A stretch of 64,000 nucleotides of DNA from Escherichia coli (GCF_022846255.1 NZ_AP025682.1), one strand, 5' to 3'; positions 12,932-64,000 are shown, counted from the stretch's first letter. Translations and numbers: made by a program. Notes: generated from the sequence alone by a model not told the origin.

Positions 12932-12956
12932 GCCGGACAATTTGCCGGGAGGATGT

Positions 12957-13091
12957 ATGGTTCAGTGTGTTCGACATTTTGTCTTACCGCGTCTGAAAAA
13001 AGACGCTGGCCTGCCGTTTTTCTTCCCGTTGATCACCCATTCCCAGCCCCTCAATCGAGGGGCTTTTTTTTGCCCAGGCGTCAGGAGATAA
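12957..13091 (+). CDS. pyrL: pyrBI operon leader peptide
   Basis: 44-codon ORF MVQCVRHFVLPRLKKDAGLPFFFPLITHSQPLNRGAFFCPGVRR overlapping the attenuator hairpin. Confidence 0.92.
   Translation: MVQCVRHFVLPRLKKDAGLPFFFPLITHSQPLNRGAFFCPGVRR
13045..13071 (+). terminator. pyrBI attenuator (rho-independent terminator inside pyrL)
   Basis: agcccctcaatcgaggggct hairpin followed by T8 run, 24 bp before pyrB ATG. Confidence 0.9.
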
Positions 13092-13094
13092 AAG

Positions 13095-14030
13095 ATGGCT
13101 AATCCGCTATATCAGAAACATATCATTTCCATAAACGACCTTAGTCGCGATGACCTTAATCTGGTGCTGGCGACAGCGGCGAAACTGAAAGCAAACCCGC
13201 AACCAGAGCTGTTGAAGCACAAAGTCATTGCCAGCTGTTTCTTCGAAGCCTCTACCCGTACCCGCCTCTCTTTCGAAACTTCCATGCACCGCCTGGGTGC
13301 CAGCGTGGTGGGCTTCTCCGACAGCGCCAATACATCACTGGGTAAAAAAGGCGAAACGCTGGCCGATACCATTTCGGTTATCAGCACTTACGTCGATGCG
13401 ATAGTGATGCGTCATCCGCAAGAAGGTGCGGCGCGCCTGGCCACCGAATTTTCTGGCAATGTACCGGTACTGAATGCCGGTGATGGCTCCAACCAACATC
13501 CGACACAAACCTTGCTGGACTTGTTCACCATTCAGGAAACCCAGGGGCGGCTGGAAAATCTGCACATTGCGATGGTCGGTGACCTCAAATATGGCCGCAC
13601 CGTTCACTCCCTGACTCAGGCGCTAGCGAAGTTCGACGGCAACCGTTTTTACTTCATCGCGCCGGACGCGCTGTCAATGCCGCAATACATTCTGGATATG
13701 CTTGATGAAAAAGGGATCGCCTGGAGTCTGCACAGCTCTATTGAAGAAGTGATGGCGGAAGTAGACATCCTGTATATGACCCGCGTGCAAAAAGAGCGCC
13801 TGGACCCGTCCGAGTACGCCAACGTGAAAGCGCAGTTTGTTCTTCGCGCCAGCGATCTCCACAACGCCAAAGCCAATATGAAAGTGCTGCATCCGCTGCC
13901 GCGTGTTGATGAGATTGCGACGGATGTGGATAAAACGCCTCACGCCTGGTACTTCCAGCAAGCAGGCAACGGGATTTTCGCTCGCCAGGCGTTACTGGCA
14001 CTGGTTCTGAATCGCGATCTGGTACTGTAA
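13095..14030 (+). CDS. pyrB: Aspartate carbamoyltransferase catalytic subunit
   Basis: 311-aa ORF with STRTR and HPLP motifs; AGGAGA RBS. Confidence 0.96.
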
Positions 14031-14042
14031 GGGGAAATAGAG

Positions 14043-14504
14043 ATGACACACGATAATAAATTGCAGGTTGAAGCTATTAAACGCGGCACGGTAATTGACC
14101 ATATCCCCGCCCAGATCGGTTTTAAGCTGTTGAGTCTGTTCAAGTTGACCGAAACAGATCAGCGCATCACCATTGGTCTGAATTTGCCTTCTGGCGAGAT
14201 GGGGCGCAAGGATCTGATCAAAATCGAAAATACCTTTTTAAGTGAGGATCAGGTTGATCAGCTGGCGTTATATGCACCGCAAGCCACGGTTAACCGTATC
14301 GACAACTATGAAGTGGTTGGCAAATCGCGCCCCAGTCTGCCAGAGCACATCGACAATGTGCTGGTCTGCCCGAACAGCAACTGTATCAGCCATGCCGAAC
14401 CGGTTTCATCCAGCTTTGCCGTGCGAAAACGCGCCAATGATATCGCGCTCAAATGCAAATACTGTGAAAAAGAGTTTTCTCATAATGTGGTGCTGGCCAA
14501 TTAA
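14043..14504 (+). CDS. pyrI: Aspartate carbamoyltransferase regulatory subunit
   Basis: 153-aa ORF with C-terminal Zn-binding cysteines (CPNSNC...CKYCEKEF). Confidence 0.96.
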
Positions 14505-14521
14505 TTGCGGTTGGTAATAAA

Positions 14522-14554
14522 AGTCTGGCTCCCTATAATGAGCCAGACTTTTTA
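14522..14554 (+). terminator. pyrBI rho-independent terminator
   Basis: Perfect 10-bp stem agtctggctc/gagccagact, 8-nt loop, TTTTT tail. Confidence 0.88.
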
Positions 14555-14576
14555 CCGCTGTAATAAAGGAGAAATC

Positions 14577-14963
14577 ATGAGCAAAACTATCGCGACGGAA
14601 AATGCACCGGCAGCTATCGGTCCTTACGTGCAGGGCGTTGATCTGGGCAATATGATTATCACTTCCGGTCAGATCCCGGTAAACCCGAAAACGGGCGAAG
14701 TCCCGGCAGATGTCGCTGCACAGGCGCGTCAGTCGCTGGATAACGTAAAAGCGATCGTCGAAGCCGCTGGCCTGAAAGTGGGCGATATCGTTAAAACCAC
14801 CGTGTTTGTGAAAGATCTGAACGACTTCGCAACCGTTAATGCTACCTACGAAGCCTTCTTCACCGAACACAACGCCACCTTCCCGGCACGTTCTTGCGTT
14901 GAAGTTGCCCGTCTGCCGAAAGACGTGAAGATTGAGATCGAAGCGATCGCTGTTCGTCGCTAA
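14577..14963 (+). CDS. ridA: 2-iminobutanoate/2-iminopropanoate deaminase RidA (YjgF)
   Basis: 128 aa from ATG at 14577 with AAGGAG RBS; MSKTIATENAPAAIGPYVQG... Confidence 0.93.
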   Translation: MSKTIATENAPAAIGPYVQGVDLGNMIITSGQIPVNPKTGEVPADVAAQARQSLDNVKAIVEAAGLKVGDIVKTTVFVKDLNDFATVNATYEAFFTEHNATFPARSCVEVARLPKDVKIEIEAIAVRR

Positions 14964-15020
14964 TCTTGATGGAAATCCGGGCTATCATGCCCGGATTAAG
15001 TCTAATGACAAACGCAAAAT

Positions 15021-15110
15021 TGCCTGATGCGCTACGCTTATCAGGCCTACGTGATTCCTGCAATTTATTGAATTTGTAGGCCTGATAAGGCATTTACGCC
15101 GCATCCGGCA
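15021..15110. repeat. REP elements
   Basis: tgcctgatgcgctacgcttatcaggcctac and gtaggcctgataaggc...gcatccggca. Confidence 0.75.
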
Positions 15111-15168
15111 TGAACAAAGCTCACTTTGTCTGCAATCTGATTCCGGGCCACCATGCCCAGTTTATTCT

Positions 15169-17865
15169 TTACTGCCAACCGTAACGACGGCTATAGAACC
15201 CTTTCACCAACTGGGTTAACGTCATATACCCTGCCAGAATCGCAACCAGCCACGGGAAATAGCTTAACGGCAGCGCCTGCAGCTGCAGATAACTGGCCAG
15301 CGGTGAAAACGGCAATGCGATCCCGACAATCATCACGATCACGGTCATAATCATTAACGGCCACGATGCACAGCTCTGAATAAACGGTACACGACGGGTG
15401 CGGATCATATGCACAATCAGCGTTTGCGACAGTAAGCCCACCACAAACCAGCCCGACTGGAACAGCGTTTGCGTTTCCGGCGTGTTGGCATGGAATACCC
15501 ACCACATCAGGCAAAACGTCAGAATATCGAAAATCGAGCTGATCGGTCCGAAGAAGACCATAAAGCGCCCCAGATCCGCCGGATTCCAACGCTGCGGCTT
15601 TTGAATTTGCTCGTCGTCGACGTTATCAAATGGGATCGCCACCTGTGACACATCGTATAGCAGATTTTGAATAAGCAAGTGTAGCGGCAACATCGGCAGG
15701 AAGGGCAAGAAAGCACTCGCCACCAGCACGCTGAACACATTACCGAAGTTAGAGCTCGCCGTCATTTTGATGTATTTCAGCATGTTGGCGAAAGTGCGAC
15801 GTCCCTCAATAACCCCCTCTTCCAGCACCATCAGGCTTTTTTCCAGCAGGATGATATCAGCCGCTTCACGGGCAATATCTACCGCGCCGTCCACAGAAAT
15901 GCCGATATCCGCAGCGCGTAAGGCGGGCGCATCATTAATACCATCGCCCATAAAGCCAACCACATGCCCTTCGCGCTTCAGCAACGTTACGATGCGTTCT
16001 TTATGCATCGGCGTCAGACGAGCAAACAGCGTGGTGCGCTGTGCGAGATTTGCCAGTTCGTCGTCAGATAGCGTTTCAATATCACTACCAATGACCACCT
16101 CTCCCGCGTCCAGCCCCACTTCATGGCACACTTTCGCTGCAACTAACTCACTGTCGCCAGTAAGGATTTTTACGGTAATTCCACTCGCTTTTAATGCCTT
16201 CAGTGCCGGAGCGGTTGTCTCTTTTGGCGGATCAAGGAAAGCAATATATCCTTCGAGGATCAGGTCGGATTCATCCGCCCGCTGGTAATCTCCTTCACGC
16301 GCTGGCAGGTATTTCGTCGCCACCGCAACCACGCGCAGCCCCTGACGATTCAGCGTATCAGTAACCCGCTTAATCTTACGCAGCATGGTGTCATCGAGCG
16401 GTACAATCTCGCCATTGTGACGCACTTGCGAACACACATTGAGGATTTCCTGCAATGCGCCTTTGCAAACCAACTGATGGTGTTCGGTATTTTCTGCCAC
16501 AACCACCGACATCCGACGACGCTCGAAATCAAACGGAATCTCATCAATTTTTTGCCAACGGCTGGCCAGCGAGCGCGCTGACTCTTCATCCGTACCTTCG
16601 AGCACCGCTGTATCAAGCAGGTTTTTAAGCCCGGTCTGGTAATGGCTGTTCAACCACGCGCTATGCAGCACGCGTTCGCTAGTTTTACCGGAGATATCGG
16701 TATGATTCTCCAGCACAATTTTATCCTGTGTCAGGGTGCCGGTTTTATCAGTGCACAGAATATCCATTGCGCCAAAGTTCTGAATGGCATCCAGATGTTT
16801 GACGATCACTTTCTGTTTCGACAACTTGACTGCGCCACGCGCCAGCGTCGAGGTAACAATCATCGGCAACATTTCTGGCGTTAAGCCTACCGCGACCGAA
16901 AGCGCAAACAGTGCCGCTTCCCACCAGTCACCTTTGGTGTAACCGTTGATAAGCAACACCACCGGAGCCATCACCAGCATAAAGCGAATCAGCAGCATAC
17001 TGACGCGGCTAATCCCTTGCTGAAAGGCATTCGGCTCGCTTTCCTGCTCACTAACACGCCCCGCCAGTTGACCAAACCAGGTATTGGCACCTGTGGCAAT
17101 CACCATTGCTTGTGCCGTGCCGCTCACCACGGTGGTGCCCATAAAACACAGGGTGTCGCACTCCAGCGGATTGCTGTGCTCCGGCTGGCGAGTGGTAGCG
17201 GCTTTTTCCACGGGCAGAGACTCACCGGTTAACGACGCCTGAGCGACAAACAGATCCCGCGCCTGCAAGATACGTAAATCTGCCGGGATCATATCCCCCG
17301 CCGCCAGTTTTATAATATCGCCGGGCACCAGTTGGTCTATCGGGATTTCCAGCCAGCCATTTTCACCTTTATCGTTAATTACGCGCAGTACCGTCGCGGT
17401 ATTACTGACCATCGCTTTCAGGGCATCTGCCGCTTTGGTGGAACGAGCTTCCTGAATAAAGTTCAGCAACGTAGAAATAGCGACCATTAGCGCGATAACA
17501 CCTGCGGCAAATAAATCTTCCGTGGCGTAAGAAATAGCACCAAGAATGGTGAGCAAAATATTAAAGGGGTTGCGATAGCAGACCCATAAATGTACCCACC
17601 ACGGCGACGGTTGTTGTGCGGGTAATTTATTTTCACCATGTTGTTCGCGGGCAGATTCCACTTCCGCCAGATTTAACCCTTCCGGATGGGTGTCGAACGT
17701 TTTCCACAATTCTTCTTCGGGCATCACCGCCATTTTCAGGCAATGCGCACTTAAAGAAGGCGGGACCGCCGCATTCACTGTCTGCTGCGCGCCAGGCAAT
17801 GGATCACGATGAACCAGACGGGAAGGTAAATGGCGAATGAGCCGGGTAAAAATTTCTTTAAACAT
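15169..17865 (-). CDS. mgtA: Magnesium-transporting P-type ATPase
   Basis: 898-aa ORF with P-type ATPase DKTGTLT phosphorylation motif and GDGINDAPAL hinge motif. Confidence 0.96.
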   Translation of the reverse strand: MFKEIFTRLIRHLPSRLVHRDPLPGAQQTVNAAVPPSLSAHCLKMAVMPEEELWKTFDTHPEGLNLAEVESAREQHGENKLPAQQPSPWWVHLWVCYRNPFNILLTILGAISYATEDLFAAGVIALMVAISTLLNFIQEARSTKAADALKAMVSNTATVLRVINDKGENGWLEIPIDQLVPGDIIKLAAGDMIPADLRILQARDLFVAQASLTGESLPVEKAATTRQPEHSNPLECDTLCFMGTTVVSGTAQAMVIATGANTWFGQLAGRVSEQESEPNAFQQGISRVSMLLIRFMLVMAPVVLLINGYTKGDWWEAALFALSVAVGLTPEMLPMIVTSTLARGAVKLSKQKVIVKHLDAIQNFGAMDILCTDKTGTLTQDKIVLENHTDISGKTSERVLHSAWLNSHYQTGLKNLLDTAVLEGTDEESARSLASRWQKIDEIPFDFERRRMSVVVAENTEHHQLVCKGALQEILNVCSQVRHNGEIVPLDDTMLRKIKRVTDTLNRQGLRVVAVATKYLPAREGDYQRADESDLILEGYIAFLDPPKETTAPALKALKASGITVKILTGDSELVAAKVCHEVGLDAGEVVIGSDIETLSDDELANLAQRTTLFARLTPMHKERIVTLLKREGHVVGFMGDGINDAPALRAADIGISVDGAVDIAREAADIILLEKSLMVLEEGVIEGRRTFANMLKYIKMTASSNFGNVFSVLVASAFLPFLPMLPLHLLIQNLLYDVSQVAIPFDNVDDEQIQKPQRWNPADLGRFMVFFGPISSIFDILTFCLMWWVFHANTPETQTLFQSGWFVVGLLSQTLIVHMIRTRRVPFIQSCASWPLMIMTVIVMIVGIALPFSPLASYLQLQALPLSYFPWLVAILAGYMTLTQLVKGFYSRRYGWQ

Positions 17866-20780: not shown

Positions 20781-22436
20781 ATGACTCATCTTCCCCACTG
20801 GTGGCAAAACGGCGTTATCTACCAGATTTATCCAAAGAGTTTTCAGGACACCACGGGTAGCGGCACCGGCGATTTACGTGGCGTTATCCAACGCCTGGAC
20901 TATCTGCATAAACTGGGCGTTGATGCCATCTGGCTAACCCCCTTTTATGTCTCTCCCCAGGTCGATAACGGTTACGACGTAGCGAATTATACGGCGATTG
21001 ATCCCACCTATGGCACGCTGGACGATTTTGACGAACTGGTGACACAGGCAAAATCGCGTGGGATTCGTATCATTCTCGATATGGTGTTTAACCATACCTC
21101 TACCCAACATGCCTGGTTTCGCGAGGCGCTGAACAAAGAAAGCCCTTACCGCCAGTTTTATATCTGGCGCGATGGAGAACCAGAAACGCCACCGAACAAC
21201 TGGCGTTCAAAATTCGGTGGTAGTGCGTGGCGCTGGCATGCAGAAAGCGAACAGTACTATTTGCATCTCTTTGCACCAGAACAGGCGGATCTCAACTGGG
21301 AGAATCCAGCGGTACGCGCAGAGCTGAAAAAAGTCTGTGAGTTCTGGGCCGATCGTGGGGTCGACGGGTTGCGCCTGGATGTGGTGAATCTGATCTCCAA
21401 AGATCCGCGTTACCCTGAAGACCTGGATGGCGACGGGCGTCGCTTCTATACCGACGGGCCACGAGCACACGAGTTTTTGCACGAGATGAACCGCGATGTG
21501 TTTACGCCACGCGGGTTAATGACCGTAGGTGAAATGTCCTCCACCAGCCTTGAGCATTGCCAGCGATACGCGGCACTGACAGGCAGTGAATTGTCGATGA
21601 CCTTTAATTTTCATCACCTGAAGGTCGATTATCCCGGAGGTGAAAAATGGACGCTGGCTAAACCTGACTTTGTGGCGTTGAAAACATTGTTCCGCCACTG
21701 GCAACAAGGAATGCACAACGTGGCATGGAATGCCTTGTTCTGGTGTAACCACGATCAGCCGCGCATTGTTTCTCGCTTTGGTGATGAAGGTGAATACCGC
21801 GTGCCTGCGGCAAAAATGCTGGCGATGGTGCTGCATGGCATGCAGGGAACGCCGTATATCTACCAGGGCGAAGAGATTGGCATGACCAACCCACATTTCA
21901 CGCGCATTACTGACTATCGCGACGTGGAGAGCCTCAATATGTTTGCCGAGCTGCGCAACGATGGGCGTGATGCCGACGAGTTATTGGCAATCCTCGCCAG
22001 TAAATCCCGTGACAACAGTCGCACACCCATGCAATGGACCAACGGCGATAATGCCGGGTTTACGGCTGGCGAACCGTGGATTGGCCTGGGCGATAACTAT
22101 CAGGAAATCAACGTAGAAGCAGCGCTGGCCGATGAGTCCTCGGTGTTTTACACCTACCAAAAGTTAATCGCACTGCGTAAGCAAGAAGCCGTCCTGACAT
22201 GGGGCGATTACCAGGATCTGCTGCCAAACAGCCCTGTATTGTGGTGCTATCGCCGTGAGTGGAAGGGGCAAACCTTGCTGGTCATTGCCAACCTTAGCCG
22301 TGAGACCCAACCCTGGCAGCCAGGGAAAATGCTCGGCAACTGGCAGCTTGTGATGCATAACTACGAAGAAGCCTCACCACAACCCTGTACCATGACTTTA
22401 CGGCCTTTTGAGGCTGTCTGGTGGTTACAGAAGTAA
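20781..22436 (+). CDS. treC: Trehalose-6-phosphate hydrolase (GH13)
   Basis: 551 aa from ATG at 20781 (MTHLPHWWQNGVIYQIYPKSF); track ORF starts 49 codons upstream. Confidence 0.93.
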   Translation: MTHLPHWWQNGVIYQIYPKSFQDTTGSGTGDLRGVIQRLDYLHKLGVDAIWLTPFYVSPQVDNGYDVANYTAIDPTYGTLDDFDELVTQAKSRGIRIILDMVFNHTSTQHAWFREALNKESPYRQFYIWRDGEPETPPNNWRSKFGGSAWRWHAESEQYYLHLFAPEQADLNWENPAVRAELKKVCEFWADRGVDGLRLDVVNLISKDPRYPEDLDGDGRRFYTDGPRAHEFLHEMNRDVFTPRGLMTVGEMSSTSLEHCQRYAALTGSELSMTFNFHHLKVDYPGGEKWTLAKPDFVALKTLFRHWQQGMHNVAWNALFWCNHDQPRIVSRFGDEGEYRVPAAKMLAMVLHGMQGTPYIYQGEEIGMTNPHFTRITDYRDVESLNMFAELRNDGRDADELLAILASKSRDNSRTPMQWTNGDNAGFTAGEPWIGLGDNYQEINVEAALADESSVFYTYQKLIALRKQEAVLTWGDYQDLLPNSPVLWCYRREWKGQTLLVIANLSRETQPWQPGKMLGNWQLVMHNYEEASPQPCTMTLRPFEAVWWLQK

Positions 22437-56511: not shown

Positions 56512-57150
56512 ATGCCCGGGCGCTTTGAACTAAAACCAACCCTGGAGAAAGTCTGGCACGCGCCGGACAATTTTCGCTTCATGGACCCGCTGCCGCCGAT
56601 GCATCGTCGGGGGATCATTATTGCCGCCATTGTATTGGTGGTCGGATTTCTGCTTCCATCTGATGATACGCCCAACGCGCCGGTGGTGACGCGTGAAGCG
56701 CAGTTAGATATTCAGTCGCAATCACAACCACCGACAGAAGAACAGCTGCGGGCGCAATTAGTCACGCCACAAAATGATCCTGATCAGGTGGCTCCGGTCG
56801 CTCCAGAACCAATACAGGAAGGCCAACCAGAAGAGCAGCCGCAAACCACCCATACGCAACCATTCCAGCCAGATAGCGGAATTGATAATCAATGGCGCTC
56901 CTATCGTGTCGAACCCGGTAAAACGATGGCGCAGCTGTTCCGCGACCACGGACTGCCCGCTACCGATGTCTATGCCATGGCGCAGGTAGAAGGCGCGGAT
57001 AAGCCACTGAGTAATTTGCAAAACGGGCAGATGGTGAAAATCCGCCAGAACGCCAGCGGCGTGGTGACGGGCTTAACCATTGATACGGGGAATAATCAAC
57101 AGGTCCTGTTTACCCGCCAGCCGGATGGCAGTTTTATTCGCGCGCGGTAG
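56512..57150 (+). CDS. ytfB: Cell-division/peptidoglycan-associated protein YtfB (OapA-like, Pro/Gln-rich linker)
   Basis: 212 aa from ATG at 56512 with AGGAGGA RBS. Confidence 0.9.
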
Positions 57151-57781
57151 ATGAAGGGTCAACCAAAAGCCAGCTAAGGATCGTCTCTTTGATGACCTTA
57201 CGTCTGGCTTCCAGTGCCTGCGGTGAAACCATACTGATGTGATAAACCAGACCAAGCGTATGCTGGTTGATCAAATAATATCCCCCAAGCGCAGCAATAT
57301 TAATATTCACCTGCAATGGGTCGATATCTGGCTTAAAAATATTGTTTTTCTTCCCTTCATCCAATAAGGATTCCATTAACTGCAAGTGCGCATGGTTAAT
57401 TTCTAAAAGACGCTGTGACTTTGCATAATGCACACCCTTACTTTGATTTTCACTATGCACAATTTTTAAAAACCAGGGATTAGAAATATAATAATCCCAT
57501 GTAAAATCGATTATTTTCTCAATGGCTTTCTGTGGCGGAAGATCTGAGAAATCAAGGGCCTTTTCTTTTTGTCGAATATCGTTCCAGGTATATTCCAGTA
57601 CTTCGATAAATAAATTTTCTTTATTACCAAAGTGGTGATAAACCGTCTGTTTACTGCACCCCGCGGCCTTGACGATATTATCGACTCTGGCCCCTTCGTA
57701 ACCATATTCGGCAAATTCATTAACCGCGCATAACAGCAGCTTTTCTTTCAGGCTCTGTACGTTGCTGGTATCAAGATACAT
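57134..57781 (-). CDS. TetR-family transcriptional regulator (accessory)
   Basis: 215 aa from ATG at 57781 (ORF extends to 57853); Tet[45 protein letters not shown]; ~40% GC. Confidence 0.8.
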
Positions 57782-57903
57782 AACGCTTCCCCACGACCTC
57801 TTCGTGGTGACTATCATAACCTGATTTGATTTCAGCTTCAGAAAAAAGGGCAAAAACTTGTACTTTCATCAGGTTATCAAATGTCCTGTGATCGCCATCG
57901 CAT

Positions 57904-57925
57904 ATCAACCAACTAGATGGTTGAT
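57904..57925. promoter_or_regulatory. Perfect palindrome, candidate operator of the TetR-controlled divergon
   Basis: ATCAACCA-actaga-TGGTTGAT, 8-bp perfect arms, ~70 bp upstream of the SDR gene ATG. Confidence 0.45.
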
Positions 57926-57993
57926 CTTTTTATCCTCCAGTCGCAAGCTAATCATCACTAAGGAAACAAAATTCAAAAAAAGAGAGCTATTGT

Positions 57994-58785
57994 ATGAAAT
58001 CCACTCGTCCTGTTGCCGTGATTACCGGAGCCGCACGTGGTATTGGAAAGGGCTGTGCGCTGGAGCTTGCGCGTGGCGGATTTAATCTGCTGATTAATGA
58101 TCGTCCGGATGCGGATAGCGTAGAAAAATTACATGCCACACAACAAGAATGTCTGGCGGAAGGCGTGGAAGTGATTTGCTTCCCTGCTGATGTGGGCGAT
58201 CTCTCCCTGCATGAAGAGATGCTCGACGCAGCGCAAAACCAGTGGGGACGTCTGGACTGCCTGCTCAACAACGCAGGCATTTCAGTGAAAAAACGCGGTG
58301 ACCTTCTCGACCTCGAACCAGACAGCTTCGACCAAAATATTGCCATTAACACCCGCGCACCGTTCTTCCTTGCTCAGGCATTCAGTAAGCGCTTACTGGC
58401 ACAGCCGAAACCGGAAGCAGAACTGCCGCACCGCTCGATTATTTTCGTCAGTTCCATCAACGCCATCATGCTGGCGATGAATCGCGGCGAATATACCATT
58501 GCCAAAACTGCCGTCTCTGCCGCTGCTCGTCTGTTTGCTGCTCGCCTTTGTAATGAACAAATTGGCGTATATGAAGTGCGTCCTGGTCTCATCAAAACCG
58601 ATATGACTATTCCGGCAACGGCCTATTACGACGAACTGATTGCCAAAGGTCTGGTGCCGTGGGGACGTTGGGGTTATCCGGCTGATATTGCTTCCACTGT
58701 CCGCGCGATGGCGGAAGGTAAACTGATTTACACCTGTGGTCAGGCGGTCGCCATCGACGGCGGCTTAAGTATGCCGCGCTTCTGA
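57994..58785 (+). CDS. Short-chain dehydrogenase/reductase (SDR) family oxidoreductase
   Basis: 263-aa ORF; TGAARGIG cofactor motif and YxxxK catalytic motif (YTIAK). Confidence 0.85.
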   Translation: MKSTRPVAVITGAARGIGKGCALELARGGFNLLINDRPDADSVEKLHATQQECLAEGVEVICFPADVGDLSLHEEMLDAAQNQWGRLDCLLNNAGISVKKRGDLLDLEPDSFDQNIAINTRAPFFLAQAFSKRLLAQPKPEAELPHRSIIFVSSINAIMLAMNRGEYTIAKTAVSAAARLFAARLCNEQIGVYEVRPGLIKTDMTIPATAYYDELIAKGLVPWGRWGYPADIASTVRAMAEGKLIYTCGQAVAIDGGLSMPRF

Positions 58786-58794
58786 GGCTGAATC

Positions 58795-59637
58795 ATGAGA
58801 GATCTGTTACAACGCCCGGATTTATTCAGTATCAATACCGCGACACTGGGCTATAAAACGCCGCTGCCCGCCATTATTGATGCCTGCGCCGCACGCGGTA
58901 TTGGCGCCATTGCCCCCTGGCGCAGGGAGTTGCAGGGTGAAGATCTCCAGCAAATCGCCCGCCAGCTTGCTGCCAGTAACATAAACGTTTCCGGTTTGTG
59001 CCGTAGCACCTACTACACCGCACCGACGCTGGCGGAGCGCAAACTGGTGATTGACGATAACCGCCGGGCGCTGGACGACGCCGCTGTACTGAACGCCGCC
59101 TGTTATATGCAGGTGGTTGGCGGTCTGCCAATGGGAACAAAAGATCTGTACGAAGCACGGGAACAAGTGAAACAAGGGATTCGCCAGTTGCTGCCACATT
59201 CGAAAGAGGTCGGCGTGCCAATTGCACTGGAGCCACTGCACCCGATGACTGCTGCCGATCGTTCTTGTCTGTGCACGTTACGTCAGGCGCTGGACTGGTG
59301 TGATGAACTCGATCCCGATGGCGAATTTGGCCTCGGCGTGGCGGTAGATGTCTACCATGTCTGGTGGGACCCGGATCTCGCCAGTCAGATCCTGCGTGCC
59401 GGAAAACGCATCCTCGCGTTTCATGTTTCCGACTGGTTAGTGCCGACCACCGATCTGGTCAATGACCGTGGAATGCCGGGAGATGGTGTCATCAATATTC
59501 CGTCAATTCGTCGGCTGGTTGAAAACGCCGGATTTAATGGCGCTATTGAACTGGAAATATTCTCACCGTACTGGTGGCAGAAAGATATTAACAGCACGCT
59601 GGATATTAGCGTCGATCGCATCGCACATTATTGTTAA
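58795..59637 (+). CDS. Xylose-isomerase-like TIM-barrel protein (sugar-phosphate isomerase/epimerase family)
   Basis: 280-aa ORF, 9-nt spacing from upstream gene; family assignment from overall sequence character, moderate certainty. Confidence 0.65.
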   Translation: MRDLLQRPDLFSINTATLGYKTPLPAIIDACAARGIGAIAPWRRELQGEDLQQIARQLAASNINVSGLCRSTYYTAPTLAERKLVIDDNRRALDDAAVLNAACYMQVVGGLPMGTKDLYEAREQVKQGIRQLLPHSKEVGVPIALEPLHPMTAADRSCLCTLRQALDWCDELDPDGEFGLGVAVDVYHVWWDPDLASQILRAGKRILAFHVSDWLVPTTDLVNDRGMPGDGVINIPSIRRLVENAGFNGAIELEIFSPYWWQKDINSTLDISVDRIAHYC

Positions 59638-59646
59638 GGAATAATC

Positions 59647-60423
59647 ATGAGTGACCAACCCGTTCTGTTCAGCAGAGCGGCGGCTTCTTGCCGCCTGACA
59701 TTGAACCGTGAAGATAAATGTCATGCTATTAATGAAGAAATGATCGAATCTCTCGACCATTATTTAAATGAAATTGAAAATGACACGGCATTACGCTTAG
59801 TCGAATTAACGGCAACCGGCGATAAATTCTTTTGTGCGGGCGGCGATATTAAATCGTGGTCGGCCTATTCGCCATTAGATATGGGCAGAAAATGGATTAA
59901 ACGCGGTAATGACGTTTTTAATCGCCTGCGCAACTTACCCCAATTAACCGTTGCGAATCTCAACGGTCATACCATCGGTGGCGGTATTGAACTTGCCTTG
60001 TGCTGCGATATTCGTATCGCTCGCCCCGGCGCGAAATTCTCTAACCCGGAAGTGATGCTCGGCATGGTGCCAGGCTGGATGGGCATTGAGCGAGTGCTTA
60101 ATCAGGTTGGTCCTGTGGTCGGTCGCCAGATGCTGATGCTGGGTAAACGCCTGACGGCGCAGGAAGCTCAGACAGCGAATTTAATTGATGAAGTGGTAGA
60201 AAAAGAACAGGTGGAAAGCTGGATGGCGAACCAGTTAGCGCAGCTGGAAAAATGTGGTCCGGTGGCACTGGCACATATTAAGCAACTGATTCTGGCGCTG
60301 GAAAATAAACACGCCGATTACTCCCACCAGTTACTGGCTGGATTAATGTCCGCCACTCAGGATTGCCAACAGGCGACGCACGCATTTGCCGAAAAAGCCG
60401 GCGTGAGCTTCCACAATCAATAA
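59647..60423 (+). CDS. Enoyl-CoA hydratase/isomerase (crotonase) family protein
   Basis: 258-aa ORF with crotonase motifs FFCAGGDI and GHTIGGGIELAL. Confidence 0.8.
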   Translation: MSDQPVLFSRAAASCRLTLNREDKCHAINEEMIESLDHYLNEIENDTALRLVELTATGDKFFCAGGDIKSWSAYSPLDMGRKWIKRGNDVFNRLRNLPQLTVANLNGHTIGGGIELALCCDIRIARPGAKFSNPEVMLGMVPGWMGIERVLNQVGPVVGRQMLMLGKRLTAQEAQTANLIDEVVEKEQVESWMANQLAQLEKCGPVALAHIKQLILALENKHADYSHQLLAGLMSATQDCQQATHAFAEKAGVSFHNQ

Positions 60424-60432
60424 GGAAATTGT

Positions 60433-61974
60433 ATGCGTAAGTTATCAACCGCCGAGACACTGGCGGCGCAAATTCAGGACGGCGCAACCATTGCCATTAG
60501 CGGCAACGGCGGCGGTATGGTGGAAGCTGACCATATTCTGGCCGCCATTGAAGCGCGCTTTCTGCAAACCGGACACCCGCGCGATCTGACATTAATCCAC
60601 TCGCTGGGTATTGGCGATCGCGACAGCAAAGGCACTAACCGTTTTGCTCACGCCGAAATGCTCAAACGCATTATTGCCGGACATTTTACCTGGTCGCCCA
60701 AGATGCAGGAACTGGTGAAAAGCAATGCTATTGAAGCCTACTGTTTCCCTGGTGGCGTAATTCAGGCACTGCTGCGGGAGATCGGTGCCGGACGTCCGGG
60801 GCTTTTTACCCACGTTGGGCTGGGATCGTTTGTTGATCCACGCAATGGTGGCGGTAAGTCGAATGAATGCACTACCGACGACCTGGTAGAACTGATTGAA
60901 ATCGACGGTGAGACCAAACTTCGTTATCGCCCTTTCAAAGTGGACTACGCGATTTTGCGCGGCACCTATGCCGATCCGCGTGGCAACGTCAGCCTCGAAG
61001 AAGAGGCGATTGATATGGATAGCTATTCGATGGCGCTGGCAGCACACAACAGCGGCGGCAAAGTGTTCGTACAGGTCCGCGATGTGCTGGAAGCAGGTAC
61101 CATTGAACCACGTCGGGTCAAACTACCAGGAATTCTGGTCGATGGCATCGTTGAGCACCGCGAACAACCGCAAACCTATCTTGGTGGTTACGACCTGACG
61201 ATCAGCGGTCAACATCGCCGTCTAAGTTCTAACGACGCTATTGAACTGGTTAGTCATCCGGTGCGTCGCCTGATTGCCCGTCGGGCAGCGCGGGAACTGG
61301 TGGCAGGCGCTTCAACCAACTTTGGCTTTGGTATTCCCGGCGGTATTCCTGGGGTTGCACTGCGCGAAGGCGTGCCTTATCAAAGTTTGTGGCTGAGTGT
61401 AGAACAGGGTGTACATAACGGCATGATGCTGGATGATGCTCTGTTCGGCTGCGCCCGTAACGCCGATGCCATTATTCCATCACTCGATCAATTCGAATTC
61501 TACAGTGGCGGCGGTATCGATATCACCTTCCTCGGCATGGGAGAGATGGATCGGTACGGTAACGTCAACGTATCCCATCTCAATGGCAATCTCATTGGCC
61601 CCGGCGGCTTCCTCGAAATTGCGCAAAACGCCCGTAAAGTGGTGTTCTGCGGTACGTTTGACGCCAAAGGCAGCAAGATTGATGTAACGCCTGATGGCCT
61701 GCATATCGCCCAGTCAGGTCAAATCCCCAAACTGGTTACCCAGGTGGAAAAAATTACTTTTAGCGCCGCATACGCACAGCAAAGCAGTCAGGAAGTGCTG
61801 TATATCACCGAACGTGCGGTATTCCAGTTAACGGCAGAAGGCGTTGAATTAATTGAGATCGCCCCTGGCGTAGAGATTGACCGCGACATTCTGCCGTATA
61901 TGGCCTTCCGTCCGATTATCAGGCACCCACGCCTGATGGAAAGTAGCCTGTTTACGCCAATGGAGGATGCATGA
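60433..61974 (+). CDS. Fused alpha/beta family-I CoA-transferase (acyl-CoA:acetate/3-ketoacid type, YdiF/Pct-like)
   Basis: 513-aa ORF; N-terminal DGATIAISGNGGG motif typical of family-I CoA-transferases. Confidence 0.7.
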   Translation: MRKLSTAETLAAQIQDGATIAISGNGGGMVEADHILAAIEARFLQTGHPRDLTLIHSLGIGDRDSKGTNRFAHAEMLKRIIAGHFTWSPKMQELVKSNAIEAYCFPGGVIQALLREIGAGRPGLFTHVGLGSFVDPRNGGGKSNECTTDDLVELIEIDGETKLRYRPFKVDYAILRGTYADPRGNVSLEEEAIDMDSYSMALAAHNSGGKVFVQVRDVLEAGTIEPRRVKLPGILVDGIVEHREQPQTYLGGYDLTISGQHRRLSSNDAIELVSHPVRRLIARRAARELVAGASTNFGFGIPGGIPGVALREGVPYQSLWLSVEQGVHNGMMLDDALFGCARNADAIIPSLDQFEFYSGGGIDITFLGMGEMDRYGNVNVSHLNGNLIGPGGFLEIAQNARKVVFCGTFDAKGSKIDVTPDGLHIAQSGQIPKLVTQVEKITFSAAYAQQSSQEVLYITERAVFQLTAEGVELIEIAPGVEIDRDILPYMAFRPIIRHPRLMESSLFTPMEDA

Positions 61975-64000
61975 GTCAGCTTGATGAGGCCATCCTTGAT
62001 GCACTGACACACGTTACTTTCCCAAAGGGTTTTGCACAGGCAGAACCCGCATGGGTTGTCACGGTAGACGGTGTTGATTACCCACTCTGGAAAACAGATG
62101 CCCTGGTAGTCGGCAGTGGTGCAGCCGGGCTACGTGCAGCTGTGGAACTTAAACGCCGCCAGCAAAATGTGTTAATCGCCACCGCCGGGTTATATATGGG
62201 GACATCGGCATGTTCTGGCTCTGATAAACAAACACTGTTTACCGCCGCTACCGCGGGCAACGGCGACAACTTCGCCAAACTGGCAGAGGCACTGGCGAGC
62301 GGTGGGGCGATGGATCACGACACCGCTTATGTTGAAGCGGTAGGTTCTCTGCACACTCTTGGCGGGTTGCAATATCTTGGTCTGGAATTACCGGAAGATC
62401 GCTATGGCGCGATTCTTCGTTATCAAACCGACCATGACGAAGCCGGGCGTGCAACCTCGTGTGGGCCGCGTACCTCAAGGTTAATGGTGAAAGTGCTGCT
62501 GGAAGAAGTACAGCGTCTTGCTATCCCAATGTTGGCCAGTGCAACAGTGATTAAACTGCTGCATCAGCGTGACGAAAACGGTGAAGACCGTGTGGCGGGG
62601 GCAATCCTCGCGACCGGTCATCGCGCCCATAACCCATGGGGGCTGGCAATTGTGACTGCGCCCAATGTGGTACTGGCAACAGGCGGGCCTGGCGAGCTTT
62701 ATCGCGACAGTGTGTATCCACACAAATGTTTCGGCTCGCTGGGGCTGGCGCTGGAGGAAGGTCTGACGTTAACGAATCTGACTGAAAGCCAGTTTGGTAT
62801 AGGCACACCGCGCAGCACGTTTCCGTGGAATTTGTCCGGCACCTATGTACAGGTGATCCCATATATCTATTCCGTGGATGCCGGGGGCAACGAGTATAAC
62901 TTCCTCGCGGATTACTATCGCACCACCCAGGAGCTGGCTTCAAACATTTTCCGTAAAGGCTATCAGTGGCCGTTCCACGCCACGCGGGTAATGGATTTTG
63001 GCTCCAGCTTGTTAGATATGGCAGTAGCGCAAGAGCAGCAACATGGTCGTCAGGTATTTATGGATTTCAATCGTAATCCAGAACCTGTGCCGGGTGACCT
63101 ACCGTTCTCATTAGATCGACTGGACGACGACGTTCGCGCGTATCTGGAAAATAACGACGCTCTGGCACCATCGCCCATCGAACGCCTGCAACAAATGAAT
63201 CCTCTGTCTATCTCGCTGTATAAGATGCACGGTTACGATCTCATCACGCAGCCATTGCAGTTTGCCATGAATAATCAGCACATGAATGGCGGCATTGAAG
63301 TCGATATCTGGGGACAAACATCTCTGCCCGGTTGTTTTGCGGTGGGGGAAGTTGCTGGCACACACGGCGTCACCCGACCTGGCGGCGCGGCGTTGAATGC
63401 CGGGCAGGTTTTTGCTGTTCGTCTGGCGCGCTTTATTGGTTGCACGCAAAAGCGGAATATTGATGGAGATATTGCACAGCTGGCAGCTCCGGCACTGGCT
63501 TCTATAAGAGAGATCATTACTCAGGCGCACGATAACGGGTCCGGGATGCCGTTGTCGGTTGTGAGAGAAAAAATTCAGGCACGAATGTCTGACTATGCGG
63601 GATTTATTTGCCATGCCGATAAAGTCCGACGTGCCACTCGTGATGCCCTGCTATTGAACGAATTTGTCCAACGACATGGATTGGCAATCAAACATGTGGG
63701 TGAAGTTGCCGAGCTGTTTATGTGGCGGCATATGGCGCTGACTTCTGCCGCGGTATTAACACAATTAACGCATTATATTGATGCTGGTGGTGGTAGCCGT
63801 GGGGCGCGTATGGTTATTGATCCACAAGGCAAATGCCTACCACAAACTCGTCGCGGCGCAAAAGAAGAATGGCGTTTTCGCTCTGAACTCGCTGAAGACA
63901 AAAATCACAAATTAACAATTCAATATTCGCAAGGTTCTTTTATTACCGAAGTAAAGTCTTTACGTATGCAACCGTGTATTAACGGTATTTACTTTGAAAA
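61971..64000 (+). CDS. FAD-dependent oxidoreductase of the fumarate reductase / succinate dehydrogenase / L-aspartate oxidase flavoprotein superfamily; 3'-truncated by window edge
   Basis: Open frame from ATG 61971 (ATGA overlap with upstream stop) with no stop to 64000 (>=676 codons, hand-translated; not in supplied track); GxGxxG (ALVVGSGAAGL) and GEVAGTHGVTRPGGAALNAG motif. Confidence 0.75.
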   Translation, partial: MSQLDEAILDALTHVTFPKGFAQAEPAWVVTVDGVDYPLWKTDALVVGSGAAGLRAAVELKRRQQNVLIATAGLYMGTSACSGSDKQTLFTAATAGNGDNFAKLAEALASGGAMDHDTAYVEAVGSLHTLGGLQYLGLELPEDRYGAILRYQTDHDEAGRATSCGPRTSRLMVKVLLEEVQRLAIPMLASATVIKLLHQRDENGEDRVAGAILATGHRAHNPWGLAIVTAPNVVLATGGPGELYRDSVYPHKCFGSLGLALEEGLTLTNLTESQFGIGTPRSTFPWNLSGTYVQVIPYIYSVDAGGNEYNFLADYYRTTQELASNIFRKGYQWPFHATRVMDFGSSLLDMAVAQEQQHGRQVFMDFNRNPEPVPGDLPFSLDRLDDDVRAYLENNDALAPSPIERLQQMNPLSISLYKMHGYDLITQPLQFAMNNQHMNGGIEVDIWGQTSLPGCFAVGEVAGTHGVTRPGGAALNAGQVFAVRLARFIGCTQKRNIDGDIAQLAAPALASIREIITQAHDNGSGMPLSVVREKIQARMSDYAGFICHADKVRRATRDALLLNEFVQRHGLAIKHVGEVAELFMWRHMALTSAAVLTQLTHYIDAGGGSRGARMVIDPQGKCLPQTRRGAKEEWRFRSELAEDKNHKLTIQYSQGSFITEVKSLRMQPCINGIYFE

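Follow-up and report, generated by a model that had tools for sequence, protein, structure and literature searches.

The window analysed here, a stretch of 64,000 nucleotides of Escherichia coli DNA, leaves the conserved core genome at ytfB (positions 56512 to 57150, plus strand), the last conserved core gene, which corresponds to 13379-14017 in locus L001 (offset to the window, +43133). On the minus strand a TetR/AcrR regulator gene of low GC content (57134-57781) is convergent with ytfB, and the 3' ends of the two genes overlap by 17 nucleotides. The mechanical call for this ORF was 57134-57853; the RefSeq start in E. coli 536 corresponds to the ATG at 57781 and gives a protein of 215 amino acids with TetR_N and TetR_C_29 domains. 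Divergent from the regulator, on the plus strand, are genes for a classical SDR oxidoreductase (57994-58785, 263 amino acids), a xylose-isomerase-like TIM barrel (58795-59637, PF01261, 280 amino acids), a crotonase-family enoyl-CoA hydratase/dehydratase (59647-60423, 258 amino acids), a fused family I CoA-transferase of the YdiF/propionate-CoA-transferase type (60433-61974, 513 amino acids) and an FAD_binding_2 flavoprotein with the FrdA/SdhA/NadB fold (61971 to the window end at 64000).

The first four of these genes are separated by three spacers of 9 nucleotides, and the CoA-transferase and flavoprotein genes share an ATGA stop/start overlap, exactly as in the original prediction. Its description of a low-GC TetR gene divergent from a tightly packed five-gene operon was confirmed by the ORFs and the GC content (0.38-0.40 for the regulator gene versus 0.52-0.57 for the operon), and its enzyme labels agree with the Pfam and NCBIfam profile assignments. 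Each 9-nucleotide spacer contains a Shine-Dalgarno-like motif (GAGG, AAGGA or GGAGG), which overlaps the preceding stop codon or comes directly after it. The unit is a real, tightly packed operon, and it does continue past the window, as had been anticipated. The flavoprotein frame is open from 61971 to base 64000 (676 of 690 codons) and the full gene would end at 64043; in the E. coli 536 counterpart, which is 99.1% identical, the flavoprotein has 690 amino acids, that is 14 further codons, and is followed by a transporter gene. The last 290 or so nucleotides of the window belong to the segment that differs between operon variants with an MFS-type and with a TRAP-type transporter.

The best conserved block of the intergenic region between the TetR and SDR genes is a 22-bp palindrome at 57904-57925 (ATCAACCAACT followed by AGATGGTTGAT). 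It is present upstream of the SDR gene in all the seven-gene enterobacterial loci that we fetched, occurs once in the window, and had no match in 100 shuffles. With a TetR_N helix-turn-helix regulator facing the operon across this region, the palindrome is a candidate TetR operator. Next to it, at 57887-57902, lies a CRP-like site, TGTGATCGCCATCGCA, of which both half-sites are kept in Klebsiella and Salmonella. This is the sole match with at most one mismatch in the 64-kb window, where 1.7 are expected by chance, so that the support for a putative CRP site comes from its position and conservation and not from its match count. We predict that the operon is TetR-repressed and probably CRP-activated. 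A simple scan of the intergenic region found no sigma-70 promoter, and its single 'terminator' match is the 22-bp palindrome itself. Between 56000 and 64000, a search with Rfam gave neither a riboswitch nor any other RNA family.

The unit had been described as accessory, at a position where K-12 has only short remnants. The remnants are borne out: between ytfB and rplI, K-12 holds only the ytfA pseudogene and yjfZ, and ytfA (402 nucleotides) is what is left of the 3' part of the TetR gene. The label 'accessory', however, is misleading. At least 80% of the unit is found in 3110 of 5426 complete E. coli genomes (about 57%; it is missing from about 43%), with strains 536, CFT073 and E. coli C among the carriers. 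Klebsiella oxytoca and some Salmonella (S. enterica) have the same seven-gene unit, likewise flanked by ytfB and rplI. The flavoproteins of these two units are 78-79% identical to that of E. coli, and the gene arrangement is kept across the three genera at 78-92% protein identity. Given this synteny with Klebsiella and Salmonella and the frequency of the unit in E. coli, K-12 represents the deleted state. Judged by these sequence comparisons, the unit is ancestral at the ytfB-rplI position in Enterobacteriaceae, is no recent island, and was deleted in the K-12 lineage. That no characterised E. coli pathway matches the operon, as originally stated, agrees with our own searches: the database names of its proteins are all generic, and full-text literature searches found no paper on the operon and none that ties one of its proteins to a substrate. 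More than half of sequenced E. coli, the K. oxytoca group and some Salmonella strains thus carry a conserved, apparently functional catabolic operon that escaped study because it is deleted in K-12.

Is the flavoprotein 'FrdA-like', as first proposed? In fold it is. It matches Pfam PF00890 (E 7e-25), and its AlphaFold model (pLDDT 89.6) has FrdA, SdhA and NadB as best Foldseek matches (E 1e-23 to 1e-30, 14-18% identity, TM about 0.65-0.79). It shares with them the FAD_binding_2 fold with capping and C-terminal domains, and, like that of NadB, its FAD is non-covalent. In catalytic residues it is not FrdA-like. A MAFFT alignment with K-12 FrdA and NadB and a family set of 21 proteins identified His437 (in QHMNGG) and Arg469 (in TRPGG) as family-invariant equivalents of FrdA His355 and Arg390. 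However, FrdA His232 and Arg287 (His244 and Arg290 in NadB) have no equivalents, and neither has His44: the column of the catalytic His is occupied by Gly276, and the Arg motif TEGCRGEGG is replaced by FPWNLSGTY, a region in which the 21 family members share no invariant Arg or His. On these active-site residues we rejected a true fumarate reductase or aspartate oxidase. The protein also differs from FrdA, SdhA and NadB in inserts proper to its family (KGYQWPF, GSDKQT) and in about 90 additional C-terminal amino acids, and no gene for an Fe-S subunit (FrdB/SdhB) is present in the E. coli, Klebsiella or Salmonella operon. Its family comprises about 410 unnamed clusters at 50% identity, drawn from Proteobacteria, PVC bacteria and Firmicutes. 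In E. coli, the operon flavoprotein is the founding member of this large family, which has no characterised representative.

The SDR motifs are intact (TGAARGIG at 11, NNAG at 92, Ser153, Tyr167 and Lys171). The crotonase has both catalytic Glu residues (GGGIE115 and NPE135), and its best PDB matches are short-chain hydratases/dehydratases. The CoA-transferase, with fused alpha and beta CoA_trans domains, matches PDB 2AHU at E 2e-114, and its Glu324 aligns with the catalytic Glu333 of YdiF. From these residues, both CoA enzymes look catalytically intact. The TIM barrel is similar over its full length to Sinorhizobium meliloti SMc04130 (PDB 3JU2/3QC0, uncharacterised; E 1e-85). Compared with all solved PDB chains, it retrieved three uncharacterised close relatives and then IolI (only E 2e-5) and ketose epimerases, with E-values up to 0.01. 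It reaches the curated cut-off of none of the named PF01261 enzymes (IolI, IolO, hydroxypyruvate isomerase, ketose 3-epimerases), and its assignment as IolO, Hyi or IolI was rejected (28.6 bits versus a cut-off of 300 for IolO, 26.1 versus 353 for Hyi). None of the five operon enzymes matches families of the UxaC, UxuB or UxuA type, and neither a thiolase nor an acyl-CoA dehydrogenase gene occurs in the E. coli, Klebsiella or Salmonella operon.

In other genomes the flavoprotein is found mostly in sugar-type clusters, with Gfo/Idh/MocA proteins, GMC oxidoreductases, a KdgK-like PfkB kinase and Eda-like or class I aldolases as neighbours (for distant relatives on metagenomic contigs, the contigs are too short to show informative neighbourhoods). 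Two recurrent associations stand out. One is a module of SDR, TIM barrel and flavoprotein that occurs without CoA enzymes in Brenneria, Pseudescherichia and the PVC group (Planctomycetes, Verrucomicrobia, Lentisphaerae), mostly inside sugar-type clusters. Identities in Brenneria are 74% for the SDR, 71% for the TIM barrel and 59% for the flavoprotein, and a PcaK-like, aromatic-acid-type MFS adjoins the module; the Pseudescherichia-type loci have a different MFS. These modules suggest that the direct substrate need not be a hexuronate, and that the flavoprotein is probably not simply a beta-oxidation acyl-CoA dehydrogenase. The second association, CoA-transferase and crotonase beside the flavoprotein, occurs in Enterobacteriaceae, in Rhizobium, Devosia, Rhodobacter and a betaproteobacterium, and in Desulfobacterales. 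Simple orthology of the enterobacterial pair to the alpha/betaproteobacterial one was rejected (about 39% identity, versus 59-79% among the latter), and the recurrence of the trio with pairs that are not simple orthologs argues for functional coupling.

The transporter slot of the enterobacterial unit has been swapped several times and holds either an MFS or a TRAP system. The MFS of E. coli 536 shares 47% identity with K-12 ExuT over 424 amino acids but only 27% with GarP and DgoT; those of Klebsiella and Salmonella are 47-48% identical to ExuT. A TRAP system takes the place of the MFS in 1446 genomes. Its binding protein, WP_000695892.1, is closest to PDB 4X8R, 4N8Y, 4N91, 4MHF and 4N15 (E 1e-60 to 1e-71), of which 4X8R has glucuronate and 4N8Y galacturonate as ligand (PMC11668362, PMC7660916). 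Residues Arg146, Arg166 and Asn206 are spaced like Arg150, Arg170 and Asn210 of STM3169 (positions from PMC7660916), and the four hexuronate-binding PDB proteins in the alignment conserve these positions. Two independent transporter systems point to a hexuronate-like substrate. Counting against such a substrate are Gln70 of the TRAP binding protein, a Glu in all four aligned hexuronate binders, and the lack of any kinase or aldolase gene in the E. coli operon; the use of a TetR regulator, unusual for sugar-acid operons, counts in the same direction. D-glucuronate and D-galacturonate are already catabolised in E. coli via ExuT/UxaC, and therefore the operon substrate must be a different uronate-like compound. 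For the originally predicted CoA-thioester pathway of a small organic acid, the CoA enzymes do look intact. A generic small acid, however, is unlikely since the MFS and TRAP alternatives are both hexuronate-type.

The reading we tentatively prefer, with slightly less than even confidence, is catabolism of an imported sugar acid, hexuronate-like and processed via a CoA thioester, by an operon that is TetR-repressed, probably CRP-activated, ancestral and deleted in K-12. The acid would be taken up by the ExuT-like MFS or, where E. coli carries the other allele, by the hexuronate-type TRAP system. The YdiF-type CoA-transferase would convert it, or a downstream acid, to a CoA thioester, with acetyl-CoA or the product thioester as donor. 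The thioester would enable the crotonase to catalyse a beta-elimination or hydration beside the carboxyl carbon, a logic similar to that of CaiB/CaiD in carnitine metabolism. The flavoprotein, holding a carboxylate by His437 and Arg469, would oxidise, or possibly reduce, the sugar acid at C-alpha/C-beta. The TIM barrel (a keto/enol isomerase or dehydratase) and the SDR (a keto-reductase) may then yield a 2-keto-3-deoxy-hexonate-type product for the core KdgK/Eda enzymes. We infer alike the substrate, the order in which the enzymes act and the direction in which the flavoprotein works. Schemes based on 1,5-anhydro-sugars, O-methyl-uronates, 3,6-anhydrogalactonate, 2-keto-aldonates or a deoxyribonate-type route were also considered; none explains all contexts.

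Taken further, the operon may encode an undescribed hexuronate-type route, in which CoA-thioester activation and a new family of FrdA-fold flavoproteins replace the known isomerase, oxidative or reductive chemistry; we regard this as a possibility, but a doubtful one. We know of no described hexuronate route, whether isomerase, oxidative or reductive, that uses CoA enzymes or a flavoprotein. Such a route would serve a uronate beyond the reach of the core Uxa/Uxu enzymes, for instance a 4-O-substituted or C5-epimeric one from plant or host glycans.

The pathway type first proposed for the operon, beta-oxidation-like or Cai-like and possibly a reductive electron sink, would act on a short carboxylic acid that is hydroxylated or unsaturated (for example 3-hydroxypropionate/acrylate, 3-hydroxybutyrate/crotonate or a C5-C6 analogue). 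In this scheme the CoA-transferase would activate the acid, the flavoprotein make or reduce the enoyl-CoA, the crotonase hydrate or dehydrate it, and the SDR take the 3-hydroxy/3-keto step. We consider this unlikely, although several features agree with it: the CoA-transferase resembles YdiF and propionate-CoA-transferase, the crotonase is nearest to short-chain enoyl-CoA hydratases and the 3-hydroxypropionyl-CoA dehydratase 5ZAI, the SDR carries the annotation 3-ketoacyl reductase, and the ATGA overlap joins the CoA-transferase and flavoprotein genes. However, such a pathway lacks a thiolase in the operon and leaves the TIM barrel without a role; a thioester substrate would not need the carboxylate-binding His/Arg pair that the flavoprotein keeps; and both transporters are of the hexuronate type instead of the short-chain-acid type. 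Gene neighbourhoods speak on both sides. One locus (L013) groups CoA-transferase, crotonase, a MaoC dehydratase, an AcrC-like acyl-CoA dehydrogenase, ETF, TIM barrel and flavoprotein, and in another (L074, with no ETF or TIM barrel detected) the flavoprotein lies beside CoA-transferase, MaoC and two acyl-CoA dehydrogenases. Yet in L013 the flavoprotein accompanies the acyl-CoA dehydrogenase and ETF and does not replace them, the SDR-TIM barrel-flavoprotein module exists elsewhere without CoA enzymes, and the family is mostly found in sugar-type clusters.

If the acid converted were instead aromatic or hydroaromatic, for instance quinate/shikimate or a phenylpropanoid acid, the TIM barrel would be a dehydroshikimate-dehydratase-like enzyme, and the CoA enzymes and flavoprotein would dehydrate the ring or side chain and act in redox steps at double bonds. 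TetR-type regulation, the PcaK/MhpT-like MFS adjoining the Brenneria module, the occurrence of the SDR-TIM barrel-flavoprotein module in plant-associated hosts and the linkage of the paralog YdiF with ydiB/aroD in K-12 are consistent with this reading. Some sources even call the TIM-barrel homologs '3-dehydroshikimate dehydratase', but these names are automatic, and the PDB search returned uncharacterised relatives, IolI and ketose epimerases. With enterobacterial transporters that are ExuT-like or hexuronate-TRAP-like, and KdgK-like kinase, aldolase, GMC and Gfo genes near the flavoprotein that do not fit, we judge it improbable. Finally, the operon might be a mosaic of unrelated co-transcribed modules (SDR-TIM barrel-flavoprotein; crotonase plus CoA-transferase) or a decaying, non-functional unit, since the two modules are found apart elsewhere, about 43% of E. 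coli genomes have lost the unit and the transporter slot was repeatedly swapped. All ORFs are intact with conserved catalytic residues, however, the genes are spaced by 9 nucleotides or overlap, their arrangement and 78-92% protein identity persist across three genera, and the association of CoA-transferase, crotonase and flavoprotein recurs in distant lineages, all of which makes a mosaic or decaying unit very improbable.

Identification of the substrate would give a function to hundreds of gene clusters, the carbohydrate clusters of the flavoprotein family being found in gut, plant, soil and marine bacteria. It could reveal a CoA-dependent chemistry of sugar acids and would define a nutrient niche that sets lineages of E. 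coli apart in the gut or the urinary tract. Two transporter alleles, a candidate operator and a soluble binding protein make the question directly testable.

Comparison with known systems places a hexuronate-like reading in context. The E. coli hexuronate system (ExuT, UxaC/UxaB/UxaA and UxuB/UxuA to KDG, then KdgK and Eda) shares with the operon an ExuT-type uptake, and relatives of the flavoprotein adjoin KdgK-like kinases and aldolases. In contrast, the operon has no homologs of uronate isomerase, mannonate/altronate oxidoreductase or dehydratase, its regulator is of the TetR type and not, like ExuR, of the GntR type, and it contains CoA enzymes and a flavoprotein. The cai operon (CaiB, CaiD, CaiA) likewise transfers CoA onto a hydroxy acid that is dehydrated by a crotonase, with a flavoprotein acting at the double bond. 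CaiB, however, belongs to the family III transferases, and CaiA is an acyl-CoA dehydrogenase supplied by FixABCX, whereas the operon described here has a family I transferase, an FrdA-fold flavoprotein, no ETF genes, and an SDR and a TIM barrel in addition. YdiF, the K-12 acetate/acyl-CoA transferase (PDB 2AHU), has the same fused family I architecture at about 39% identity, but is a paralog encoded in another operon, ydiF-ydiO, with ETF genes. The uncharacterised, sugar-type SMc04130 cluster of S. meliloti resembles our operon in its TIM barrel, over the whole length, and in its TetR_C_29-type regulator; it has neither flavoprotein nor CoA enzyme, and the TIM barrel is instead accompanied by three Gfo/Idh/MocA proteins, a DUF993 protein, an MR/MLE-like protein and an ABC transporter.

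The divergent TetR gene of the operon, on the minus strand, follows ytfB (56512-57150) and spans 57134-57853 by mechanical ORF call, or 57134-57781 (215 aa) according to the RefSeq annotation of Escherichia coli 536; the 3' ends of the two convergent genes overlap by 17 nt (57134-57150). Facing it on the plus strand are genes for an SDR (57994-58785), a PF01261 xylose-isomerase-like TIM barrel (58795-59637), a crotonase (59647-60423), a fused family I CoA-transferase (60433-61974) and a FAD_binding_2 flavoprotein, the last gene of the operon in the window, which starts at 61971 and whose frame is still open at 64000. ORF calling and the Pfam/NCBIfam families recovered every element named in the original prediction. 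All three spacers are 9 nt long and the ATGA overlap is present, exactly as it described; the GC content is 0.38-0.40 in the TetR gene, which it called low-GC, and 0.52-0.57 in the facing genes. Shine-Dalgarno-like GAGG, AAGGA or GGAGG motifs occur at every junction, overlapping or after the preceding stop codon. The continuation expected beyond the window is found in E. coli 536, where an MFS transporter gene comes after the flavoprotein gene (690 aa), and then hipBA (hipA being frameshifted) and rplI. The evidence is solid that this operon is intact, coupled, regulated and catabolic, for an imported carboxylate.

In the intergenic region between the TetR and SDR genes, a 22-bp palindrome (ATCAACCAACT followed by AGATGGTTGAT) lies at 57904-57925; it occurs once in the window and in none of 100 shuffles. 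It is the most conserved block of this region among E. coli, Klebsiella and Salmonella, and we consider it a candidate TetR operator. No Rfam family match was found. Directly upstream lies a CRP-like site, TGTGATCGCCATCGCA (57887-57902), with one mismatch to the CRP consensus; it is not significant by count alone, since 1.7 are expected per window, and its half-sites are conserved in Klebsiella and Salmonella.

Two transporter types occupy the slot after the flavoprotein gene in E. coli: an MFS protein of the strain 536 type in 1685 genomes (21003-22280 of the 536 locus, L001) and, in its place, a TRAP system (DctQ, DctM, DctP) in 1446 genomes (12940-15784 of the E. coli N427 locus, L090). Aligned along its entire length, the 536 MFS shares 47% identity with the K-12 hexuronate transporter ExuT, but GarP and DgoT reach only 27%. 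Its counterparts in the Klebsiella and Salmonella operons are just ~51% identical to the 536 protein, yet they too share 47-48% identity with ExuT. The top PDB matches of the TRAP binding protein are 4OVR, 4X8R, 4N8Y, 4N15, 4N91 and 4MIJ/4MHF (E 1e-60 to 1e-71). The ligands are glucuronate in 4X8R and galacturonate in 4N8Y (PMC11668362), while 4N91 is a glucuronate binder and 4MHF a glucuronate/galacturonate binder (PMC7660916). The conserved ligand contacts of STM3169 are Arg150, Arg170 and Asn210 (PMC7660916); Arg146, Arg166 and Asn206 of the E. coli protein are spaced identically and fall in columns conserved in the four aligned hexuronate-binding PDB proteins, and its Gln70 stands where all four have Glu. 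Because the unrelated MFS and TRAP uptake systems agree in indicating a hexuronate-shaped compound, a hexuronate-like carboxylate is well supported. D-glucuronate and D-galacturonate are already catabolised by E. coli via ExuT/UxaC, so the substrate is probably some other uronate or a closely related derivative.

The switch point between the MFS and TRAP types falls within the final ~300 nt of the flavoprotein gene. Nucleotide identity between the two types drops there to 73% and then 47% (about 63712-64000 of the window, L001 20579-20910; roughly the C-terminal 100 aa), while elsewhere the operon is a mosaic at 90-99% identity; the recombination junction therefore lies inside this gene. The transporter slot is a swappable cassette, and the C-terminal domain of the flavoprotein co-varies with transporter type.

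The flavoprotein gives a good structural model (pLDDT 89.6) and has the FrdA/SdhA/NadB fold, at just 14-18% identity. When 21 family members were aligned with K-12 FrdA and NadB, His437 and Arg469 were invariant and equivalent to His355 and Arg390 of FrdA, flavin-domain residues holding the substrate carboxylate. In the same alignment the family presents inserts of its own and no counterpart of the catalytic capping-domain residues His232 and Arg287 of FrdA, nor of its covalent-FAD residue His44. No Fe-S subunit gene lies beside the flavoprotein gene. The family has 410 representatives (50% clustering, E below 1e-30), with generic names throughout the protein collection and AFDB.

Among the other enzymes, the SDR carries the TGxxxGxG, NNAG and Ser-Tyr-Lys motifs typical of classical SDRs, the two catalytic glutamates of the crotonase are present, and Glu324 of the CoA-transferase aligns with Glu333 of YdiF. 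In K-12, ydiF, the closest paralog of the CoA-transferase gene, lies directly after ydiB-aroD (quinate/shikimate dehydrogenase and dehydroquinase) and is followed by ydiO and ETF genes (L093, 1771000-1785000), in a further CoA-linked cluster with unsettled function. The TIM barrel was rejected as any named PF01261 enzyme, scoring far under the cut-off of every such family; it matches the uncharacterised SMc04130 of S. meliloti (PDB 3JU2/3QC0) over its full length (E 1e-85). Like the operon, the SMc04130 cluster (S. meliloti chromosome, L092 4442-11172) combines a TIM barrel homolog with a TetR_C_29-type regulator, but its own members are three Gfo/Idh/MocA enzymes, DUF993, an MR/MLE-like protein and a divergent sugar ABC transporter. 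It is another orphan pathway with this barrel and regulator type in common.

Scanning one genome per species gave 80 loci, whose ORFs were clustered and representatives annotated, neighbours being counted inside 6 kb of the flavoprotein. In the nearer group (49 loci, flavoprotein 50-65% identical to that of E. coli), the neighbours were Gfo/Idh/MocA (28 loci), GMC oxidoreductases (23), LacI (18), a KdgK-like PfkB kinase (15), SDR (11) and TIM barrel (11); crotonase (4) and CoA-transferase (3) were also seen, the 6-kb limit underestimating the link of these CoA enzymes to the flavoprotein. The remoter, mostly planctomycete group (32 loci) had SDR at 18, OYE flavoenzymes at 13, an Eda-like aldolase at 10 and PfkB kinase at 7. 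Brenneria has a divergent TetR and SDR-TIM-flavoprotein without the CoA enzymes (74%, 71% and 59% identical to the respective E. coli proteins), Pseudescherichia, Phytobacter and Mangrovibacter have TetR and SDR-Gfo-TIM-MFS-flavoprotein, and the PVC group (Planctomycetes, Verrucomicrobia, Lentisphaerae) has TIM-Gfo-SDR-flavoprotein amid housekeeping genes. A module made up of SDR, TIM barrel and flavoprotein, common to sugar-type clusters ending in a KdgK-like kinase and aldolase, is well supported.

The CoA enzymes appear in a single gene string of Rhizobium sp. CCGE531, ordered as follows: LacI, Gfo, CoA-transferase, crotonase, aldehyde dehydrogenase, ABC transporter, two GMC, Gfo, flavoprotein, PfkB kinase (KdgK-like) and class I aldolase. 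Its binding protein comes closest to deposited proteins described as glucose-binding or as sugar ABC-transporter binding proteins. Four more alphaproteobacterial loci have a crotonase at the cut edge, immediately upstream of aldehyde dehydrogenase, and a betaproteobacterial locus has the order CoA-transferase, crotonase, TRAP, MaoC, acyl-CoA dehydrogenase, EtfBA, TIM, flavoprotein. The alpha- and betaproteobacterial CoA-transferases are a single orthologous group (59-79% identical), with which the enterobacterial enzyme shares just ~39% identity, being equally far from YdiF. Either these two enzyme families became neighbours of the flavoprotein repeatedly, or they stayed linked to it through deep divergence; both histories argue for joint working.

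We found no published characterisation of the operon, and its genes are annotated in thousands of genomes under generic names. To our knowledge, their combination matches no described hexuronate route and no described CoA-dependent acid pathway. This is a substrate-specific catabolic operon containing an uncharacterised enzyme family; it belongs to the pan-genome of E. coli, the bacterium studied most thoroughly, and can be tested directly. We tentatively propose catabolism of a hexuronate-like acid through a CoA thioester. Following the logic of the Cai system, CoA-transferase and crotonase would activate the acid and allow elimination or hydration beside the carboxyl carbon; the flavoprotein may oxidise or reduce C-alpha/C-beta, and TIM barrel and SDR could then yield a 2-keto-3-deoxy-hexonate for the core KdgK/Eda enzymes. 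The original prediction of a beta-oxidation-like pathway for a short acid accommodates the CoA enzymes, but we judge it unlikely: a thiolase is missing, the TIM barrel is left unaccounted for, and neither the transporters nor the genomic contexts of the flavoprotein fit. A hydroaromatic or aromatic substrate would suit TetR regulation and the MFS of Brenneria; the remaining evidence does not fit, making it quite improbable.

The closest match to the operon segment is E. coli 536 (99.1% across the full 6.9 kb; 674/676 flavoprotein residues identical). At least 80% of the segment is present in 3110 of 5426 complete E. coli genomes, and nearly all the others keep just the first 400-476 nt, the 3' part of the TetR gene. 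In K-12, as anticipated, only a short remnant is left, annotated as the pseudogene ytfA; yjfZ is the sole other gene between ytfB and rplI there. Klebsiella oxytoca and some Salmonella enterica have the same seven genes, in unchanged order, in their ytfB-rplI interval (flavoprotein 79% and 78% identical, respectively), and the flavoprotein also occurs in E. albertii and E. marmotae; K-12 therefore represents the deletion state. The operon is ancestral rather than a recent island: 'accessory' holds for its presence or absence across E. coli, but not for a recent acquisition.

In several operon-negative genomes (O157:H7 and others), the TetR remnant is further split by IS609 (tnpA and InsQ/TnpB). 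Several PLSDB E. coli 'plasmid' records with the flavoprotein are 0.37-4.8 Mb long and resemble misfiled chromosomes or chromosome fragments. The rplI-proximal side is a variable spot, with a hipBA-type toxin-antitoxin in E. coli 536 (L001 22423-24186), yjfZ in K-12, an EamA transporter in Klebsiella and Salmonella, and nothing in TRAP-type E. coli. The 536 rpsF gene (ribosomal protein S6, L001 25632-26028) is marked as frameshifted in RefSeq, more likely through a sequencing or assembly error, since rpsF is essential.
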